64,000 nucleotides of DNA from Patescibacteria group bacterium (GCA_022703425.1 JAKLDQ010000001.1:36243-100242), one strand, 5' to 3'; shown: positions 1 through 50,599, counted from the first letter of the stretch. Notes: a model not told the origin generated them from the letters alone. Numbers and translations: made by a program.

Positions 1-141
1 TACCGGCAGAAGCCCGCCGATGCGGTAATAAGCAGAAACAAAATAGTTTTTTCAAAACCGCAGAAAGGGGTTACTCCCGGACAGTCGGCTGTCTTTTATA
101 TAAACAAAGAGATGATAGGGGGAGGAATAATCAGGTAGAAT

Positions 142-169
142 TTGACAAGGTTTTTTATTTTGATATGAT
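142..169 (+). promoter_or_regulatory. sigma70-like promoter TTGACA-16nt-TATGAT upstream of the copper cluster
   Basis: TTGACA at 142-147 and TATGAT at 164-169 read directly; spacing is 16 nt. Confidence 0.4.
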
Positions 170-170
170 T

Positions 171-193
171 GACCTATACCATAGGTGTAGGTC
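171..193 (+). promoter_or_regulatory. palindromic operator GACCTATACCATAGGTGTAGGTC, candidate CsoR binding site
   Basis: perfect GACCTA/TAGGTC arms with nested CCTAT/ATAGG; sits between the -10 and the start codon of the first gene of a csoR-containing operon. Confidence 0.4.
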
Positions 194-194
194 A

Positions 195-389
195 ATGAAG
201 AAAAGCTGCGCATGCAAAAAATCAGTCAGCCATAAGAGATGCAGGTGTCCGGAAAATTGCGCCTGCGTCAGCGACCGCCTTTCTGAGGTGAGAAAGTGCG
301 CGTGCTCTTTTGCATATAAAAATAACAAATATTTTTGCGCCGGATGCTGCAACCACAATGACGGGTGCATTTGTCCGCTCGTCGAATAA
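195..389 (+). CDS. Cys-rich metallothionein-like small protein (16 Cys in 64 aa). ORF trimmed to the second ATG because the promoter/operator overlap the upstream ATG at 165
   Basis: MKKSCACKK...CAGCCNHNDGCICP; CxC/CC motifs; operon context with csoR/copA. Confidence 0.5.
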   Translation: MKKSCACKKSVSHKRCRCPENCACVSDRLSEVRKCACSFAYKNNKYFCAGCCNHNDGCICPLVE

Positions 390-409
390 TAATATTAAAT
401 TAAAATCGT

Positions 410-682
410 ATGACTATAAATAAGCAGGCGACTTTGATAAATTTTAAAAAAGCCAACAGTTTGACTGCAAAAATCATAAGCATGATCGAGAAGGATGAGT
501 ACTGCATTGATGTTATGCAGCAGAATTTGGCTGTAATCGGCCTTTTGAGGTCAGCCCATGAAATGCTCATGGAGAATCATCTAAACTCGTGTTTTAAAAC
601 GGCAATGGCCTCAAAAAACGAAAAAAAGAAAAGGGAAATGACGGACGAAATTTTAAAAGTAACCAAAATTTTCAACAAATAA
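410..682 (+). CDS. csoR: CsoR/RcnR-family copper-sensing transcriptional repressor
   Basis: ~90 aa all-helical; C(YCIDVM)...H(RSAHEM)...C(NSCF) signature of CsoR (DUF156). Confidence 0.8.
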   Translation: MTINKQATLINFKKANSLTAKIISMIEKDEYCIDVMQQNLAVIGLLRSAHEMLMENHLNSCFKTAMASKNEKKKREMTDEILKVTKIFNK

Positions 683-683
683 T

Positions 684-2216
684 ATGCCAAAGGAGCAGTT
701 GTATAAAGTCAAAGGAATGCATTGTGCATCGTGCGAAATACTCATCGAAAAAAAGATGCTGGAACTCGAGGGTGTTAAGGCTGCAGATGCGTCAACCCAT
801 AAAGGGGAGGTAATAATCGAATACGAAGGGGAAAAGCCCGATGAAAAAAAACTGAACACGATTTTTTCCAAGGAAGGGTACAGCTTTTCTGAAAATGAAA
901 TTTCAAAGAAAGAGGAAAAGAAAAATACTATGAGTCCGACGCTTTTTGCGTTTGATATCGCGCTATTTATTATTATTGCTTTCTTGTTTTTGGACAGAGC
1001 GGGAATTTCAGGCCTTTCGGGCGTCAGCTCCGGATCGTCAATCCCTGCTTTCTTCATTTTCGGTTTGCTTGCGGGAATTTCAAGTTGCGCGGCGCTGGTC
1101 GGGGGAATCGTCCTTTCCATGTCAAAGCAGTGGCTTGAAATATATTCAGAAAATCAAAAGTTCTCAAAAAAAATCCAGCCCCATGTAATGTTTAATGCAG
1201 GAAGGGTAGCTTCCTATGCTCTCTTCGGCGGTCTTCTCGGTCTGGTCGGCTCAAAACTCCAGTTCTCATTGCAGGCAAGCTCATTTCTGATAATTGCAAT
1301 CTCTTTTTTAATGGTCGCAATGGGCCTGCAGATGCTCGGCGTAAAAGCATTCAGAAAATTTCAGATAGCTCCTCCGAAATTTATCACCAGAAATATTGCA
1401 GACGAAAGAAATTTTCAGGGAAAGCTGATGCCGTTAATAATGGGCGCTTTGACTTTCTTCCTGCCTTGCGGGTTTACAATCACAGCCCAGGGAATCGCAC
1501 TTTTGTCGGGAAGCTTTGTAAAAGGATCCCTGATAATGTCGGCGTTCGCCCTCGGGACGGTTCCCATGCTGATGCTTATCGGGCTTTCAAGCGCAAAATT
1601 TTCGTCAAAACCTCATTTGGCTGAAAGGTTTTCCAAAATTGCCGGATTTCTGGTTTTGTTTTTTGCGCTTTTCAATATAAACGGCCAGCTGAATGTCCTT
1701 GGATTCTCCGGAATAAATTCTCTCTTCGGTTCGGGCGAAAGCGCCAAAGTTGAAAATCTTCCGCCAATGGTCGAGGGAAAACAGATAATAAAAATGGAGG
1801 CGTCGGCATCAGGTTACAGCCCGAATTATTTCAAGGTGCGCGCAAACGTTCCGGTAAGATGGGAAATCACAGACATCGGCACAAGCGGGTGCACGAATGC
1901 GGTTATTTCGAGAAATTTGTTCGACGGGCAGGTGGATCTCGAACCGGGAAAACTTTCGGTGAAAGAGTTTACCCCCGCAACTCCCGGCAAATACAGGTTT
2001 TCCTGCTGGATGGGAATGGTTTCCGGAACGATTGAGGTTATAGATGAAAACAGCGGAAACGCAGGAAATGATTCATCTTCAAATGAAGCAAACTCAAACC
2101 CGGGTAACGTTGCTTCCGCCTCCGCGTCCAATTCCTGCGGAGGGTCATGCGGAGGCTCGTGCGGATGCGGAGGAAAAAAACCATCCGGATCGGGACAAGG
2201 AGCAAGCTGTCATTAA
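684..2216 (+). CDS. fusion protein: N-terminal HMA metal-binding domain, DsbD_2/CcdA-like polytopic permease, C-terminal cupredoxin-like domain, Cys/Gly tail
   Basis: GMHCASCE HMA motif; TM segments with conserved Cys (GISSCAALVGG, FFLPCGFT); C-terminal beta-sandwich segment ...FSCWMGMVSGTIEV; tail CGGSCGGSCGCGG. Confidence 0.7.
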   Translation: MPKEQLYKVKGMHCASCEILIEKKMLELEGVKAADASTHKGEVIIEYEGEKPDEKKLNTIFSKEGYSFSENEISKKEEKKNTMSPTLFAFDIALFIIIAFLFLDRAGISGLSGVSSGSSIPAFFIFGLLAGISSCAALVGGIVLSMSKQWLEIYSENQKFSKKIQPHVMFNAGRVASYALFGGLLGLVGSKLQFSLQASSFLIIAISFLMVAMGLQMLGVKAFRKFQIAPPKFITRNIADERNFQGKLMPLIMGALTFFLPCGFTITAQGIALLSGSFVKGSLIMSAFALGTVPMLMLIGLSSAKFSSKPHLAERFSKIAGFLVLFFALFNINGQLNVLGFSGINSLFGSGESAKVENLPPMVEGKQIIKMEASASGYSPNYFKVRANVPVRWEITDIGTSGCTNAVISRNLFDGQVDLEPGKLSVKEFTPATPGKYRFSCWMGMVSGTIEVIDENSGNAGNDSSSNEANSNPGNVASASASNSCGGSCGGSCGCGGKKPSGSGQGASCH

Positions 2217-2220
2217 AAAC

Positions 2221-2436
2221 ATGAAATATACAAAAACATCAACGTTAAAAAATATCCTGGATAAAAAGGGGGCAGGCGAAGTCTTGATGAAAAACGGGGT
2301 TCCGTGCCTTTCGTGCCCGATGGCATCGCTGGAGCTGGAGCATCTTCAGATCGGACAAGTCTGCAAAATGTACGATCTGCCTCTTGATAAAATATTAGAG
2401 GAATTAAATGAGCCTTCAAAAAAGGTAAAAAAATAA
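2221..2436 (+). CDS. DUF1858-like small redox-disulfide protein (trimmed from the longer ORF that overlaps the upstream gene)
   Basis: [38 protein letters not shown] matches the DUF1858 CxxC pattern; ATG at 2221 directly after the upstream stop. Confidence 0.6.
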
Positions 2437-4676
2437 TGGAGGAGAAAAAAATATTGAAAATAAAAGGAATGGACTGCGCTTCGTGCTCAGCTTTGATTGA
2501 ACATGCGCTAAAAAAGGAAAAGGGCGTAAGTTCGGCAAATGTAAATTACGCGTCGGAGAAAGCGCATGTGAACTTTGATCCGGAAAAAACGAGCGCTGAA
2601 AAAATTGAAAAAGTTATCAACGGCCTCGGATATTCTGTTGAGAAAGAAGAAGAGATGGGTCACGGCCACGAACATCATCATAGGCCCGAATCGAAAAGCG
2701 AAATCAAATCATTGAGAAATCGCTTTTTTTTGTCTTTGTTTTTCGGTTTGCCGGCAATATACATGGTGATGGGTCCGATGGTCGGTCTTCCGCGCCTGCC
2801 GATAGATGAAAAAAACGGTATTTTTTTGCAGGCTTTTCTTGCAACGCTTGTAATAGCTGCGTGTTTTAACATCTGGGAATCCGGGCTGAAGAAAGTTCTG
2901 AAATTCGGGCCGAATATGGACACTCTGATTTTCGTCGGCACGGCGACGGCCTATGTTTACAGTATGGCAAATGCGATTCTGCTTTTTTTCGGGCGGGAAA
3001 TTCCGATGGAAAATTTTTATTTCGAATCTGCAATTTTTATTTTGGTTTTTATTTCTCTCGGAAAATATCTTGAGGCAATTACAAAAGGGAAAACATCGCA
3101 GGCGATCAAGAAGCTGATCGGCTTGCAGGCAAAAACCGCTGTTGTAATAAAAAACGGAGAAGAAACTGAAATTCCCATCTCTGACGTAAAGGCGGGGGAC
3201 ATAATAATAGTAAAACCCGGAGAAAAAATTCCCGTTGACGGAATAGTCATAGACGGATATTCGGGAGTGGACGAAAAAGCAATCACGGGGGAGTCTATTC
3301 CAGCCGAAAAGAAAAAGGGCGATTCTGTGATCGGAGCCACAATAAACAAAACAGGAGTTTTAAAGTTTCAGGCAACAAAGGTGGGCAAAGACACAATGCT
3401 TGCCCAGATTATAAAAATAGTCGAAGATGCGATGGGTTCAAAGGCGCCCATCCAGTTTCTTGCAGACAAAGTTTCATTTTATTTTGTGCCGATTGTCCTG
3501 GTTCTGGCAGTTCTGTCTGCCGCGGTCTGGCTTTTACTTGGATATTCGTTTGTTTTTGCGCTTACTGTTTTTGTGGCGATTCTGATCATTGCCTGTCCTT
3601 GCGCACTTGGGTTGGCCACTCCCACGGCTGTGATGATGGGCACCGGTCTGGCGGCCGAAAGAGGGATTCTTATAAAATCCAGCAAGGCTCTCGAAACCGC
3701 CAAAGACATCGATATTTTTGTTTTTGACAAAACAGGAACTCTTACAAGGGGGGAGCCGGTCGTCACAGACATTGTTCCTTTGGACGGACAGTTCAGCCAG
3801 AGCGAAATATTAAGGATAGCAGGCTCTGCTGAAAAAAATTCCGAGCATCCGCTTGCCCAGGCAATAGTCAATAAGGCAAAAGAGGGCAAAATAAGCCTCG
3901 CAAATGCAGAAAAATTCAGCGCCGTGCCCGGCAAAGGAGTAAAAGCCGTTGTAGAAAAAAAACAGATTTTGCTCGGAACAAGAAATCTTCTCGCAGAAAA
4001 TGGTATCGGAGCGAAGTCTTTTGAAAACAGGCTCTTTGCGCTCGAAGACAACGGCAAAACAGCAATATTGCTGGCTGTGGGGAAAAAAGTCGCCGGAATT
4101 TTGGCTTTGCAGGACGTCCTGAAAGATCATTCTTACGAAGCTCTCGAAAAGATACACAAAATGGGAAAGGAAGTTTATATGCTGACGGGCGACAACAAGC
4201 GCGTCGGGGAAGCCATTGCAAAACAATTGAATGTAGACAAGGTTCTCGCCGAGGTCCTGCCTCACGAAAAGTCAGATGAGATAAAAAAACTTCAGCACAA
4301 AGGAAAAAAAGTTGCCATGATCGGGGACGGAATAAATGATGCTCCGGCGCTGGCGCAGGCAGATCTTGGGATTGCTTTGGGATCTGGGACGGATGTCGCC
4401 ATGGAAACGGGCGAAATTGTCCTTATCAGAGATGATTTGCGCGATGTGATTTCCGCCATTGATTTAAGCAGATATACGCTGACCAAGATAAAACAAGGCC
4501 TGTTTTGGGCGTTTTTCTATAATGTTGTGGGAATTCCCGTCGCTGCAGGGGTGCTTTATCCTTTTTTTGGGATTCTTTTAAATCCGGCAATCGCAGCTGC
4601 TGCAATGGCATTTTCATCTGTCAGTGTCGTGCTTAACGCGCTTTCCATGAAAACATACAGCAAAAAGAAAATCTAG
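2436..4676 (+). CDS. copA: copper-translocating P1B-type ATPase
   Basis: HMA GMDCASC; His-rich GHGHEHHH; CPC (CPCALG); DKTGTLT; GDGINDAP; TAATG overlap with the upstream gene. Confidence 0.93.
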
Positions 4677-4736
4677 TATTGCGTTCGGAGGTTTTTTAGG
4701 GTTTAATGGAATTAATATAATAATTATTCTAAACAA

Positions 4737-5144
4737 ATGGATATCAAAGCATTTTTCGCAAACAAAAGAAATCTCGCATTGGTTTTGGTTGCGGCAGTTT
4801 TAATAATTACAGGAGGGGGGTTTCTGCTTAACCGTTTAGGATTATTAAATATGCAGAGCGTGGAAGTTCCAAAAGGAATAATTCTTTTTTATGGGAACGG
4901 ATGTCCGCACTGCCAGCAGTTGGAGGAATTTCTTACAGACCACAAAATTAATGAAAGGGTGAGCCATACAAAACTTGAAGTCTTTGAAAACGAGTCAAAC
5001 GCGCAGATACTTTTGGAAACCGCAAGAAGATGTAAAATTTCAGACGACCAGATCGGGGTTCCTTTTCTTTGGGACGGGGAAAAATGCTACCTCGGATACC
5101 CTGACGTTGAAAAGTTCTTTAGAGATCAATTAGTAAACGGCTAA
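4737..5144 (+). CDS. membrane-anchored thioredoxin-fold protein (CPHC active site)
   Basis: N-terminal TM; YGNGCPHCQQLEEF. Confidence 0.6.
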   Translation: MDIKAFFANKRNLALVLVAAVLIITGGGFLLNRLGLLNMQSVEVPKGIILFYGNGCPHCQQLEEFLTDHKINERVSHTKLEVFENESNAQILLETARRCKISDDQIGVPFLWDGEKCYLGYPDVEKFFRDQLVNG

Positions 5145-5145
5145 A

Positions 5146-5661
5146 ATGTTTAAAAAAACAACTTTTTTATCAGGTGTAATTTTTTGCGGACTGGCTTTGG
5201 CAAATTTTGCGAAAGCTGTCTGCCCTGTGTGTGTTGTTGCTGTCGGTGCGGGAGTAGGCTTGTGCAGGTGGCTCGGAGTTGATGATACAATTTCAGGGCT
5301 TTGGATCGGAGGGGTTACACTGGCGCTGGCTATGTGGACTGTTTTCTGGCTGAAGAGTAAAAAGTGGAGCTTTAAATTTGATTGGGCGTTAGTAACTGTT
5401 GCTTATTTTGGACTTGTTCTATTTCCCTTGTTTGCATACAAAATCGTAGGTCATCCTAATAACAAAGTTCTTGGGGTTGACAAGCTACTGTTTGGAATAG
5501 GCGCAGGAGGCGTTTTGTTTTTGTTAAGCAGTTATATAAGCTCATATCTGAAAAACAAAAACGGAGGGAAGGTTTATTTTCCCTACCAAAAAGTCGCAAT
5601 TCCGGTAATTGTCTTGATTATTGCCAGCGGAATTTTTTATTTAATAATCAAATGCTATTAA
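5146..5661 (+). CDS. polytopic membrane protein with CxxC inside TM1
   Basis: AVCPVCVVAVGAGVGLC; 4-5 predicted TM segments; adjacent to the thioredoxin-fold gene. Confidence 0.5.
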   Translation: MFKKTTFLSGVIFCGLALANFAKAVCPVCVVAVGAGVGLCRWLGVDDTISGLWIGGVTLALAMWTVFWLKSKKWSFKFDWALVTVAYFGLVLFPLFAYKIVGHPNNKVLGVDKLLFGIGAGGVLFLLSSYISSYLKNKNGGKVYFPYQKVAIPVIVLIIASGIFYLIIKCY

Positions 5662-5662
5662 C

Positions 5663-6193
5663 ATGGAAATAGACGATAAAAAAATAAACGAATTTATAAA
5701 AAAAGTAAACGAAAGCAAACAGGAAAAAATGGACCTGTCCTCTGACGAAGATCTTTCAATTGCAATAATGAATCTTATTTCCATCGAAGAACATTTTTTC
5801 TTTACTGCGGAAAAAACCGGAAAATCGGAGTATTTTGATTTGTTGAACGCTGCGCGGGAAATGCGGAAATCTCTTCTCAAGAAGATAATCAAGGACTATG
5901 AAGGCGAAGTCTGGTGCATCTCAAAACATCTTTTGGCAGCTTCGATGAGGCTTATGGAGGTTGGAACAAAAGCGCTGGGGCGGGGGAAAAAACAGGAAGC
6001 AGAAGATCTTTTTAAAAAAGCGTATGAACTTTATTCATTGTTCTGGGGGCTGAATCTGAAAATGGTAGATTTGGGGGACGTTAAAAAAATAGAAGAAAAC
6101 CAGATTTCAAAAAAAGACGACGACAAAAAAACAGGCATAATGGGAAAGCTTGGAAAAATGGTACAGTATGTTATAGACTGTTGCAGGGAATAA
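5663..6193 (+). CDS. hypothetical protein
   Basis: 176-aa ORF; no recognisable motif. Confidence 0.45.
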   Translation: MEIDDKKINEFIKKVNESKQEKMDLSSDEDLSIAIMNLISIEEHFFFTAEKTGKSEYFDLLNAAREMRKSLLKKIIKDYEGEVWCISKHLLAASMRLMEVGTKALGRGKKQEAEDLFKKAYELYSLFWGLNLKMVDLGDVKKIEENQISKKDDDKKTGIMGKLGKMVQYVIDCCRE

Positions 6194-6294
6194 TTTAGAT
6201 TTGAACGGCTCAGGCGGTCATACACCGTATGAGCCGTTTTTGTTTGCAAAAAATTATTGTATAATTAAGCAAATACTAAATTATTTTTTCAAAT

Positions 6295-24008: not shown

Positions 24009-24014
24009 GTTTTG

Positions 24015-24085
24015 TCGGGATATTGGGATTTGAACCCAAACTAAATCCACCCCATGGACTCGTGCTACCGTTACACTATATCCCG
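24015..24085 (-). tRNA. tRNA-Pro, anticodon GGG; no encoded CCA
   Basis: hand-folded cloverleaf: acceptor CGGGATA/TATCCCG; U8; D-loop with GG; anticodon loop AUGGGGU; T-arm TTGGG-TTCAAAT-CCCAA; C1-G72 and A73 typical of tRNA-Pro. Confidence 0.75.
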
Positions 24086-50209: not shown

Positions 50210-50599
50210 ATGCCAAGAATTGCGGGAGTAAATATTCCTGAAAACAAAAGAATAGAAATTGCTTTAACCTATATATATGGAATAGGAGGCCATTTGAGTA
50301 AGGAAATTCTCAAACTGGCACAGGTTGATGCCAACAAAAAAGCAAAAGATCTTACCCCAAAAGAAGTTAACGACCTCAAGGAGCTTATTGAAAAAAATCA
50401 CAAAATCGAGGGAGATTTGAGAAGGCAGGTTATGATTAATATCAAAAGGCTGAAAGACATCGGAGCATGGAGGGGAATGAGGCATGCAAAGGGATTACCG
50501 GTAAGAGGCCAAAGGACAAAAACAAATAACAGAACAATAAGAGGCAATGTCAGGAAGACCATGGGTTCGGGAAGAAAGCCTGCAGCTACGCCGACATAA
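50210..50599 (+). CDS. rpsM: 30S ribosomal protein S13
   Basis: [26 protein letters not shown]. Confidence 0.95.

Follow-up and report, generated by a model that had tools for sequence, protein, structure and literature searches.

A probable CsoR-repressed copper operon of Patescibacteria with an HMA-DsbD_2-cupredoxin membrane protein

What does a compact string of genes do that places a three-domain membrane protein between a CsoR-family repressor and a copper ATPase, and is such a string ordinary for its lineage? We addressed this question for the single co-directional gene string that spans positions 140-6250 on the + strand of a 64,000-nt stretch of DNA (hereafter, the window) from a Patescibacteria group bacterium (GCA_022703425.1 JAKLDQ010000001.1:36243-100242). 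An earlier note on this DNA had proposed a copper-homeostasis island combining a CsoR/CopA operon with an unusual fusion protein and accessory redox proteins. The CsoR/CopA copper operon was supported by domain matches and comparative genomics, and on balance the gene string is probably a lineage-typical CsoR-repressed copper-detoxification operon of a Patescibacteria (Candidate Phyla Radiation, CPR) bacterium. It comprises eight genes between the promoter and the terminator (Table 1). The earlier note counted seven genes and left out the last one (ORF8).

Copper efflux is among the few stress systems kept in the tiny genomes of CPR/Patescibacteria. A literature search (DsbD_2 with cupredoxin, YcnL, Patescibacteria with CsoR) returned no paper describing this operon type or the fusion family; one paper mentions only that Patescibacteria have copA (PMC8672522). 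In regulation and efflux, the operon conforms to the CsoR/CopA paradigm. It departs from it by a variant operator, a conserved HMA-DsbD_2-CupA-type membrane protein that replaces a free CopZ, an unannotated metallothionein-like first gene, and an attached thiol module. We infer the functions proposed below for the fusion, the first peptide, and the accessory module.

Operator, repressor, and copper ATPase

The regulatory part of the operon is well supported by sequence comparison. The promoter (TTGACA-16-TATGAT) matches 11 of 12 consensus positions and has a TG extension (TG-n-TATGAT). It runs into a 29-bp inverted repeat, which begins in the last 2 nt of the -10 element, covers the expected transcription start, and ends in the ATG at 195. 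The arms, at 168-180 (ATTGACCTATACC) and 184-196 (GGTGTAGGTCAAT), are 13 nt each, with one mismatch (92%) and a 3-nt centre. The palindrome that had been described as perfect between the -10 element and the start codon is thus present, but it is perfect for its outer 9 bp only. Given its overlap with the -10 element, the expected transcription start, and the first start codon, the repeat should be closed to RNA polymerase whenever a repressor occupies it.

The conserved core of the repeat is located at 172-192 (ACCTATACC-N3-GGTGTAGGT). The motif ACCYRYACCNNNGGTNNNGGT has one occurrence in the 64-kb window (0.01 expected), and the core generalised to ACCYRYACC-N3-GGT-N3-GGT (21 bp; the strict pattern) has a single match in the window, again with 0.01 expected. 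A second weak motif at window position 50267, with four mismatches, fails the strict pattern and was treated as a chance occurrence. Of 165 fetched loci, the detailed operator analysis covered the two main sets (160 loci, 1.5 Mb): 80 genome loci fetched via the fusion protein and, beside them, an independent metagenome set. The strict pattern was found upstream of csoR in 42 of 53 genome loci and in all 11 metagenome loci (53/64 overall), at a median distance of 50-66 nt, and in none of the 94 loci that have no recognised csoR. Counted from the sites, 53 of the 57 in the 1.5 Mb are near csoR; three of the four others were located, two before a separate copA or HMA gene (L060 and L066) and one in L034. 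The palindrome had been put forward as a candidate CsoR operator, to be given up if it were not conserved upstream of orthologous operons; this check was run, and the distribution among the csoR loci and the other loci agrees with the proposal.

When 56 related sites were aligned, the ACC, ACC, GGT, and GGT triplets were essentially invariant, the left half was more conserved than the right, and a TTGACA...TAnAAT promoter stood directly upstream of the operator in most of them. A motif defined in this way lets the copper regulon of Patescibacteria be read from sequence. In L034 (3125-5672), the operator copy lies 2.5 kb upstream of csoR and heads a longer operon that ends in csoR. Among the products of this operon are a membrane protein of 336 aa that contains Cys and belongs to no family, a DsbD_TM protein resembling CcdA, and an AhpC/TSA + Redoxin protein anchored by a transmembrane (TM) segment.

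The CsoR-family protein matched PF02583 (Trns_repr_metal) with 54 bits against a cutoff of 22.8 (E-value 2e-14), and its best NCBIfam match was RicR. The C-H-C signature that had been reported for it was found as Cys32, His57, and Cys61, which are invariant, together with Tyr31, in 62 CsoR orthologues (C-to-H spacing 25, H-to-C spacing 4). The x-C-H-C ligand set with a preceding Tyr is the Cu(I) signature of CsoR. The protein could alternatively sense persulfide, nickel/cobalt, or formaldehyde, which would make the operon a general thiol-stress operon, but we regard this as very improbable. Related-fold members of the CsoR/RcnR group do sense other signals, weak RcnR and FrmR matches were also obtained in NCBIfam, and the accessory module described below is found behind ArsR-type operons too. 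Nevertheless, the invariant x-C-H-C set with its Tyr and the best match to a copper sensor argue for Cu(I), and so do the products of the regulated genes: a P1B-1 ATPase for Cu(I), HMA domains, and a Cu(I) site of the CupA type. For a copper-sensing CsoR, the apo-protein would occupy the conserved 21-bp target and block RNA polymerase, and Cu(I) binding at Cys32/His57/Cys61 would free it from the operator, as family knowledge suggests.

The CsoR-copZ/copA operons of B. subtilis, L. monocytogenes, S. lividans, and M. tuberculosis share with ours the C-H-C repressor, a pseudopalindrome in the promoter, autoregulation, and the control of a P1B-1 Cu(I) ATPase with an HMA domain. The characterised type-2 CsoR operators (ATATACCCCTNAGGGGTATAT) have a TAC-X9-GTA dyad around G-tracts (PMC3902906), whereas ours is a pseudopalindrome of two nested TACC/GGTA dyads offset by 6 bp, with an interrupted G-tract. 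Its TACC/GGTA pairs are separated by X5, X11, and X17, and a G/C tract is missing from the left half. The operator is a variant of the canonical type-2 site and not identical to it. The repressor differs as well: S. lividans CsoR has an RLxR DNA-binding motif in helix alpha-1 (PMC3902906), and this motif was not seen in our CsoR, where the sequences, inspected without alignment to a characterised CsoR, have a conserved NFKKA in the N-terminal region. A recognition surface and an operator that have both changed would fit co-evolution. Finally, no free CopZ is encoded here, and a membrane fusion stands between csoR and copA.

The assignment of CopA, also made in the earlier note, was upheld by TIGR01511 (604.8 bits against a cutoff of 397 in NCBIfam). 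Pfam placed E1-E2_ATPase, Hydrolase, and HMA domains in the protein, and the translation contains an N-terminal HMA motif CASC (GMDCASC), a His-rich linker, CPC, and DKTGT. The TIGR01511 match, CPC, DKTGT, and the N-terminal HMA domain together characterise it as a P1B-1 Cu(I) ATPase. From family knowledge, CopA would pump Cu(I) out of the cell.

The arrangement csoR-fusion-copA recurs as a core in most of the 80 genome loci. A full copA was located at most 4.5 kb downstream of the fusion gene in 46 of the 53 genome loci whose sequence sufficed and in all 10 of the metagenome loci counted. More than 3,500 homologues of the fusion were retrieved, nearly all with the same three domains; their named sources are mostly Patescibacteria/CPR and a few Actinobacteria. 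By these comparisons, the core is standard across Patescibacteria. The description of the fusion architecture as unusual does not hold for this lineage, in which a gene of this kind regularly stands between csoR and copA. The 'island' fared no better. Close relatives keep the whole arrangement, including the flanking genes, mnmA upstream and SDR and DUF5679 downstream. Because the same flanking housekeeping genes recur in relatives, the reading as an acquired island was rejected in favour of a stable chromosomal locus.

Several points weigh against the string being a CsoR-repressed copper operon in all its parts. The source bacterium is uncultured. The strict pattern is missing from 11 of the 53 csoR genome loci, most of which have a looser version, and the operator is unlike characterised type-2 sites in having no continuous G-tract and no TAC-X9-GTA (PMC3902906). 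We infer the binding of CsoR to the 21-bp target from co-occurrence. The accessory module stands without cop genes in 20 of 34 loci, which makes its copper role uncertain. Lastly, the first peptide is not called as a gene in the Joint Genome Institute (JGI) record, and no catalogue homologue was found by a word-index search or by HMMER against 1.84 billion representatives (0 matches).

Table 1. Features of the gene string, with positions counted from the first base of the window
Feature	Position	Strand	Basis
Sigma-70-type promoter	142-169	+	-35 TTGACA 142-147, 16-nt spacer, TG-extended -10 TATGAT 164-169
Candidate CsoR operator	168-196		Inverted repeat ATTGACCTATACC-ATA-GGTGTAGGTCAAT
Metallothionein-like peptide, 64 aa, 13 Cys; first gene, unannotated	195-389	+	CxC / CxxCC motifs
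CsoR-family repressor, 90 aa	410-682	+	PF02583; Cys32, His57, Cys61, Tyr31
HMA-DsbD_2-Cupredoxin_1 fusion, 510 aa	684-2216	+	Three domains over Pfam gathering scores
DUF1858-like cytoplasmic CxxC protein, 71 aa (VPCLSCPMA)	2221-2436	+	Sub-cutoff Pfam/NCBIfam matches; PDB 2K53
CopA, P1B-1 Cu(I)-exporting ATPase	2436-4676	+	TIGR01511; CPC, DKTGT, N-terminal HMA
TM-anchored thioredoxin/glutaredoxin-like CPHC protein, 135 aa	4737-5144	+	Weak Glutaredoxin match; single TM
Polytopic CPVC (CPxC) membrane protein, 171 aa	5146-5661	+	No described family; orthologue motifs
ORF8, soluble helical protein, 176 aa	5663-6193	+	No described family; invariant motifs
Intrinsic terminator	6203-6246	+	15-pair interrupted hairpin (6203-6239), then UUUUUGUUUG U-run

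The HMA-DsbD_2-cupredoxin fusion protein

The earlier note had named failed domain searches for cupredoxin and DsbD_2 as grounds for refuting its account of the fusion. These searches were run, and HMA (41.5 bits), DsbD_2 (115), DsbD_TM (39), and Cupredoxin_1 (36) all scored over the Pfam gathering scores. The HMA domain, predicted to be cytoplasmic, comprises residues 7-66 with a CxxC at C14/C17. The membrane part (residues 85-338) consists of one extra TM helix and a 6-TM DsbD_2 core, and the CupA-type cupredoxin domain (residues 364-453) carries C403, C441, M443, and M445. The Cys/Gly-rich C-terminal tail, also noticed earlier, is disordered (residues 458-510). Residues C14, C17, C135, C262, C403, C441, M443, and M445 are invariant in 49 fusion sequences that are 48-68% identical. 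The AlphaFold2 (AF2) model, with a mean predicted local distance difference test (pLDDT) of 77.5, contains the HMA fold, 7 TM helices, a beta-sandwich, and the disordered tail; the helices with C135 and C262 are broken at those residues (breaks at 133 and 260-262). The membrane part shares two features with DsbD/CcdA proteins: it matches over the 6-TM core, and core helices 1 and 4 carry a conserved Cys apiece. Where homologues are named, they are usually called 'sulfite exporter TauE/SafE family protein'; we rejected this name, as the Pfam scan gave no TauE match.

The best sequence match of the cupredoxin domain in the PDB was S. pneumoniae CupA (2MRY/4F2E; E-value 3e-5, profile E-value 3.5e-7), with the ligands aligned, and CupA (4F2E) was also the top Foldseek match (template-modelling score 0.90, root-mean-square deviation 1.3 Å). 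By its cupredoxin fold and its binuclear Cu(I) site (Cys...Cys-x-Met-x-Met), the domain is of the CupA type. A reading as a blue-copper electron carrier was rejected because the ligands are Cys/Cys/Met/Met and not His/Cys/His/Met. CupA has its Cu(I) sites at C74/C111 and C74/M113/M115, is anchored in the membrane, and passes Cu(I) on to CopA at its metal-binding domain (PMC5646241). The fusion shares the cupredoxin fold and the four Cu(I) ligands with CupA and with the cupredoxin domain of pneumococcal CopA (4F2F), and it shares with CupA the membrane attachment and the gene position beside copA. Unlike CupA, the domain forms the C-terminal part of a protein with 7 TM helices, should by prediction face outward, and is followed by a Cys/Gly-rich tail; a single N-terminal anchor feeding a cupredoxin domain on CopA (taken as cytoplasmic) was not found here. 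In contrast to the pneumococcal system, CopA in the window has an HMA and not a cupredoxin domain, and the regulator is CsoR and not CopY.

The two ends of a 6-TM core lie on the same side, and with the extra first helix the HMA and cupredoxin domains should lie on opposite faces of the membrane. Given the lack of a signal peptide ahead of the HMA domain, we predict that the cupredoxin domain is located outside the cell, and the K/R-rich loops are located on the HMA side, following the positive-inside rule. We weighed the opposite arrangement, in which both domains are cytoplasmic and the fusion is a membrane-tethered double chaperone that feeds CopA, with its membrane domain as an anchor. CupA, the closest relative of the cupredoxin domain, is itself membrane-anchored and hands Cu(I) to CopA's metal-binding domain (PMC5646241), and the fusion gene nearly always adjoins copA. 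However, the 7 predicted TM helices (1 + 6-TM core) and the K/R distribution put the two domains on opposite faces, CopA has no cupredoxin metal-binding domain here, and the two invariant intramembrane Cys at the helix breaks would be functionless in a mere anchor. We therefore consider the tethered double chaperone unlikely.

Variants of the architecture were observed among relatives. One close relative (L082, 1118-2597) encodes HMA-DsbD_2 and cupredoxin as separate proteins in different reading frames, the cupredoxin protein having its own N-terminal hydrophobic membrane anchor; either a real split or an assembly frameshift is possible. Three homologues of 600-720 aa (P0014, P0002, and P0007) carry an additional HMA or HMA_2-like domain at the N-terminus, a second cupredoxin domain, or both. 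In L010 (3044-4036), the fusion gene is directly followed by a gene for a 330-aa protein that consists of a cytoplasmic HMA domain, one TM, and an outward DsbA-like domain (CPFC). Genes for such an HMA-TM-DsbA-like protein are also present in L014, L016, L020, L026, L027, L030, L037, L039, L040, L067, L072, and L074.

What, then, would the fusion do? We tentatively propose that it serves as a redox conduit and an outward copper trap that partners CopA. The fusion would display the CupA-type Cu(I) site and the Cys-rich tail on the membrane's outer face, where these sites may capture, and possibly reduce, copper that leaves or surrounds the cell. The CcdA-like 6-TM core with its invariant Cys pair would carry reducing equivalents outward, which would keep the outer cysteines of the fusion and the co-encoded outward thioredoxin/DsbA-like proteins reduced, and the cytoplasmic HMA domain may link the fusion with Cu(I) in the cytoplasm or with CopA. 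As had been suggested, copper may plausibly be handled on the extracytoplasmic side, given a cupredoxin domain that follows 7 TM helices, matches CupA, and has its four ligands conserved.

The redox conduit is favoured over a copper permease, a reading that we rate as possible but doubtful. A permease would work as an ATP-independent Cu(I) thiolate relay from the HMA CxxC through Cys135/Cys262 to the outward CupA-type site and the tail. A relay fits the invariant residues of the fusion, every set of which consists of Cu(I)/Hg(II)-type ligands; the HMA domain, a canonical metal donor/acceptor, is always present; no thioredoxin-like cytoplasmic donor is encoded beside the fusion; and the superfamily to which DsbD_2 belongs has metal-ion permeases among its members as well. 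Proteins of COG2836 (HMA+DsbD_2) are also usually annotated for heavy-metal transport (PMC4938975). On the other side, energy coupling for a relay is not evident. The redox conduit is favoured because Pfam groups the core with the cytochrome-c-biogenesis DsbD/CcdA families, because relatives encode the HMA-single TM-DsbA-like protein directly after the fusion, because the L034 operator heads an operon with CcdA-like and AhpC/TSA-Redoxin-family proteins, and because the window itself encodes an outward CPHC protein; outward thiol oxidoreductases thus co-occur repeatedly. The HMA-TM-DsbA-like protein has no transmembrane metal path, so an HMA domain alone need not mean transport, and its architecture suggests a copper-dependent docking or control role for the HMA domain.

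Against the redox conduit and outward trap stand the following points. DsbD-type proteins are normally reduced by thioredoxin and not by an HMA domain, which makes the role given to this domain ad hoc, and HMA domains are not known to donate electrons to such proteins. The outward position of the cupredoxin domain comes from topology prediction. The fusion profile retrieved neither CcdA nor any other membrane protein from the PDB sequences, CcdA was not among the 50 best Foldseek matches of the fusion, and neither search found a solved relative of the DsbD_2 core.

The resemblance to described systems is partial in each case. CcdA, DsbD, and ScsB, with the Scs copper tolerance system, share the 6-TM core, the Cys in the first and fourth core helices, the DsbD_2/DsbD_TM matches, outward thiol-active domains (fused or co-encoded), and a link to copper stress. 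They differ in that the fusion has no sequence match to solved CcdA, has a cytoplasmic HMA domain and not thioredoxin, and carries outside a Cu(I)-binding cupredoxin and not a thioredoxin fold. HMA+DsbD_2 proteins (COG2836) are predicted members of the CsoR regulon in gut Firmicutes (PMC4938975), so the architecture class is not new. These HMA+DsbD_2+DUF2318 proteins share with ours the HMA-DsbD_2 fusion under a predicted CsoR site (PMC4938975), but their C-terminus is DUF2318/FtrD-like and ours is a CupA-type cupredoxin; some relatives of our locus encode thioredoxin-like and FtrD-like proteins nearby. The new aspects of the fusion are the predicted outward CupA-type domain and its ubiquity in CPR. 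By analogy only, MerP-MerT-MerA (NmerA) has the same layout of an outer metal domain, an intramembrane Cys pair, and a cytoplasmic HMA domain, although the membrane fold and the metal are different, and the fusion has a proposed outward direction and is a single polypeptide.

The family has thousands of members and, as far as the literature search showed, no studied one; its proteins combine a copper site of the CupA type with a membrane core resembling that of CcdA. The Cys pair of pneumococcal CupA can reduce Cu(II), and the source of its re-reduction is unknown (PMC5646241); the fusion bears on this point. A further question that it poses is whether cells of the Gram-positive type trap copper at the outer face of their membrane.

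The cysteine-rich first peptide

The first open reading frame (ORF) encodes the 64-aa metallothionein-like peptide of the earlier note, with 13 Cys (20%) and not the 16 that had been counted. This frame has 13 Cys codons, compared with 0 and 1 in the two others (chance P ~1e-8), and an AGGTG Shine-Dalgarno-like element is located 7 nt upstream of the ATG. The same topology (CxC, Cx(1-2)C, CxC, CxC, CxxCC, CxC) was recovered in L090 (585-788) and L102 (2239-2454), where all 13 Cys align. Shorter relatives of 37-46 aa, aligned over the N-terminal six Cys, were found in L033, L103, and L151, and all these relatives sit between the operator and csoR. The non-Cys residues of the 13-Cys peptides diverge while the Cys positions are kept, which is a metallothionein-like pattern. 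Repeated CxC and CxxCC motifs are typical of metallothioneins, and the peptide has the small size, the Cys content (at least 15-20%, clustered in CxC/CxxC), and the kept Cys positions of this class. No Pfam or NCBIfam match was obtained, and searches of Pfam, NCBIfam, and two protein catalogues found no homology to a described metallothionein family.

The closest functional precedent is MymT of the mycobacterial RicR regulon. Like the peptide, MymT of M. tuberculosis is a small Cys-rich protein under a CsoR-family repressor with a presumed role in Cu(I) buffering; unlike MymT, with which it has no detectable homology, the peptide has a different, 13-Cys pattern and is the first gene of the csoR operon. 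By this family knowledge, the peptide would buffer cytoplasmic Cu(I) as a metallothionein.

We consider it improbable that 195-389 instead arose as an ORF by chance or serves as a regulatory leader, rich in Cys codons and translated solely to control the genes behind it. Such an element would fit the lack of a homologue in two very large protein catalogues, the JGI record without a gene call, and the absence of the peptide from most related operons, in which the operator is ~50 nt from csoR. The catalogue negatives may partly stem from uncalled genes and composition filters, and the relatives were recovered only via an ORF scan of the fetched loci. The in-frame excess of Cys codons, the identical 13-Cys spacing in two more loci along with three shorter relatives in the same operator-to-csoR position, the CxC/CxxCC repeats, and the AGGTG element before the ATG all argue for a metal-binding protein. 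Small genes of this kind, probably metal-binding, are overlooked by annotation pipelines in these genomes.

Other Cys-rich ORFs were observed in the fetched loci. L093 (6603-6719) encodes a different 38-aa, 12-Cys peptide (MTEKKCACGEKCSCGCGCKDGKKCACGPDCPCGCGCKK) downstream of csoR; it precedes the DUF1858-like, thioredoxin-like, CPxC, and ORF8 genes in an operon without copA or the fusion gene. A 34-aa, 9-Cys ORF (MENETSKCDCPDGQCTCGEEKKCCCETEKEGSCC) is located on the minus strand of L133 (7715-7819 on the reverse complement). L090 (238-579) and L102 (1843-2205) have, between the operator and the 13-Cys ORF, a gene for a membrane protein of 113-120 aa whose outer segment is rich in Met, Gly, and Tyr (MMGY...MMGYGY) and whose C-terminus is a SHOCT domain.

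The accessory thiol module and neighbouring features

The DUF1858-like gene shares base 2436 with copA through the stop/start overlap TAATG, as had been reported. The earlier assignment to DUF1858 is supported by significant matches, including an alignment with PDB 2K53 (E-value 1.6e-5) in which the CxxC is aligned, and by conservation of this CxxC in 9 orthologues, but its scores are below the curated cutoffs (24 against 32.2 bits in Pfam; 38.1 against 44.95 bits for TIGR03980, E-value 1e-9). Similarly, the thioredoxin-fold CPHC protein has the proposed membrane anchor (a single N-terminal TM) and the CPHC, which we take to be a DsbA-type active site, but its fold rests on weak matches: Glutaredoxin with 18.8 bits, below the cutoff of 22.9 (E-value 0.002), and PDB 3IC4 with an E-value of 0.019, in an alignment that covers the CPHC and a VP motif. 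It has a cis-Pro-type 'GVPFLWDG' motif and is predicted to face outward, and its orthologues have C(P/S)HC.

The membrane CxxC protein of the earlier note was found as the CPVC protein. It has a signal-like N-terminus, a conserved CPxC that starts the first mature TM segment, and the motifs RWLGVDD and FPYQKV, which are likewise conserved; neither Pfam nor NCBIfam gave a family for it. ORF8 starts 2 nt past the end of the CPVC gene and has at least 8,000 homologues, those listed being 76-86% identical, which makes it far more conserved than the neighbouring fusion (about 60% identity). Its invariant motifs are EEH, W-C-ISKH, and a C-terminal CC. ORF8 has no Pfam domain and no NCBIfam family, and the PDB profile search returned nothing; its AF2 model (pLDDT 64) gave a best Foldseek match with an E-value of 0.25 (rubrerythrin-like four-helix bundles, template-modelling score ~0.3), which is uninformative. 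A 568-aa ORF8 homologue in L002 (10366-12072) contains an intein with a LAGLIDADG endonuclease (Pfam Intein_splicing, LAGLIDADG_3), inserted exactly at the invariant Cys of W-C-ISKH. Inteins are usually located at functionally critical sites of important proteins.

The neighbourhood of ORF8 was counted in 34 metagenome loci with enough upstream sequence. The CPxC membrane protein precedes ORF8 in 34/34 and the thioredoxin-like protein in 24/34, and the DUF1858-like gene is nearby in 14/34, often directly before the thioredoxin-like, CPxC, and ORF8 genes where copA is absent. Stand-alone modules have no operator motif upstream. In L160 (3885-8516) and L135 (3528-8516), the thioredoxin-like, CPxC, and ORF8 genes stand last in an operon whose first gene is that of an ArsR/SmtB-type regulator and which encodes, in translations read by eye, ArsP-like permease, thioredoxin-like, CcdA-like, and 4Fe-4S ferredoxin-like proteins. 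Since copA is near the module in only 14 of the 34 loci and some copies stand behind ArsR-type operons, the DUF1858-like, thioredoxin-like, CPxC, and ORF8 proteins are best seen, from these gene neighbourhoods, as a separate portable thiol/metal-stress module. The earlier listing of the first three among the genes of the copper island was revised accordingly. In the window, this module is joined to the cop operon, with copA between the DUF1858-like gene and the rest, and would be co-transcribed up to the terminator. The terminator hairpin (6203-6239) folds at -23 kcal/mol (z -5.96), and none of 200 shuffles folded equally well.

A broader reading, which we rate as possible but doubtful, joins these parts into a copper-defence design of the Patescibacteria's own. 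The design would have two undescribed parts, a single polypeptide with HMA domain, Cys pair, and outward CupA-type site, and a family of CsoR-controlled Cys-rich, metallothionein-like peptides (13-Cys and 6-7-Cys) overlooked by gene finders and catalogues alike; the co-transcribed CPxC protein and the extremely conserved ORF8 would make up a new thiol/metal-stress membrane system. If this were true, the fusion would be either an ATP-independent Cu(I) thiolate relay or the reductant supply for an extracellular copper trap/reductase.

Beside the cop genes, L034 (8054-8833) and L039 (10567-11478) encode proteins with a TM-anchored thioredoxin-like part and a Cys-rich C-terminal domain. This domain is FtrD-like (DUF2318) in the L034 protein, which echoes the HMA+DsbD_2+DUF2318 proteins of Firmicutes (PMC4938975). 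Across the window (1-64000), nearly all long ORFs are on the + strand, and the sole RNA gene detected was a tRNA-Pro(GGG) on the - strand (24014-24085).

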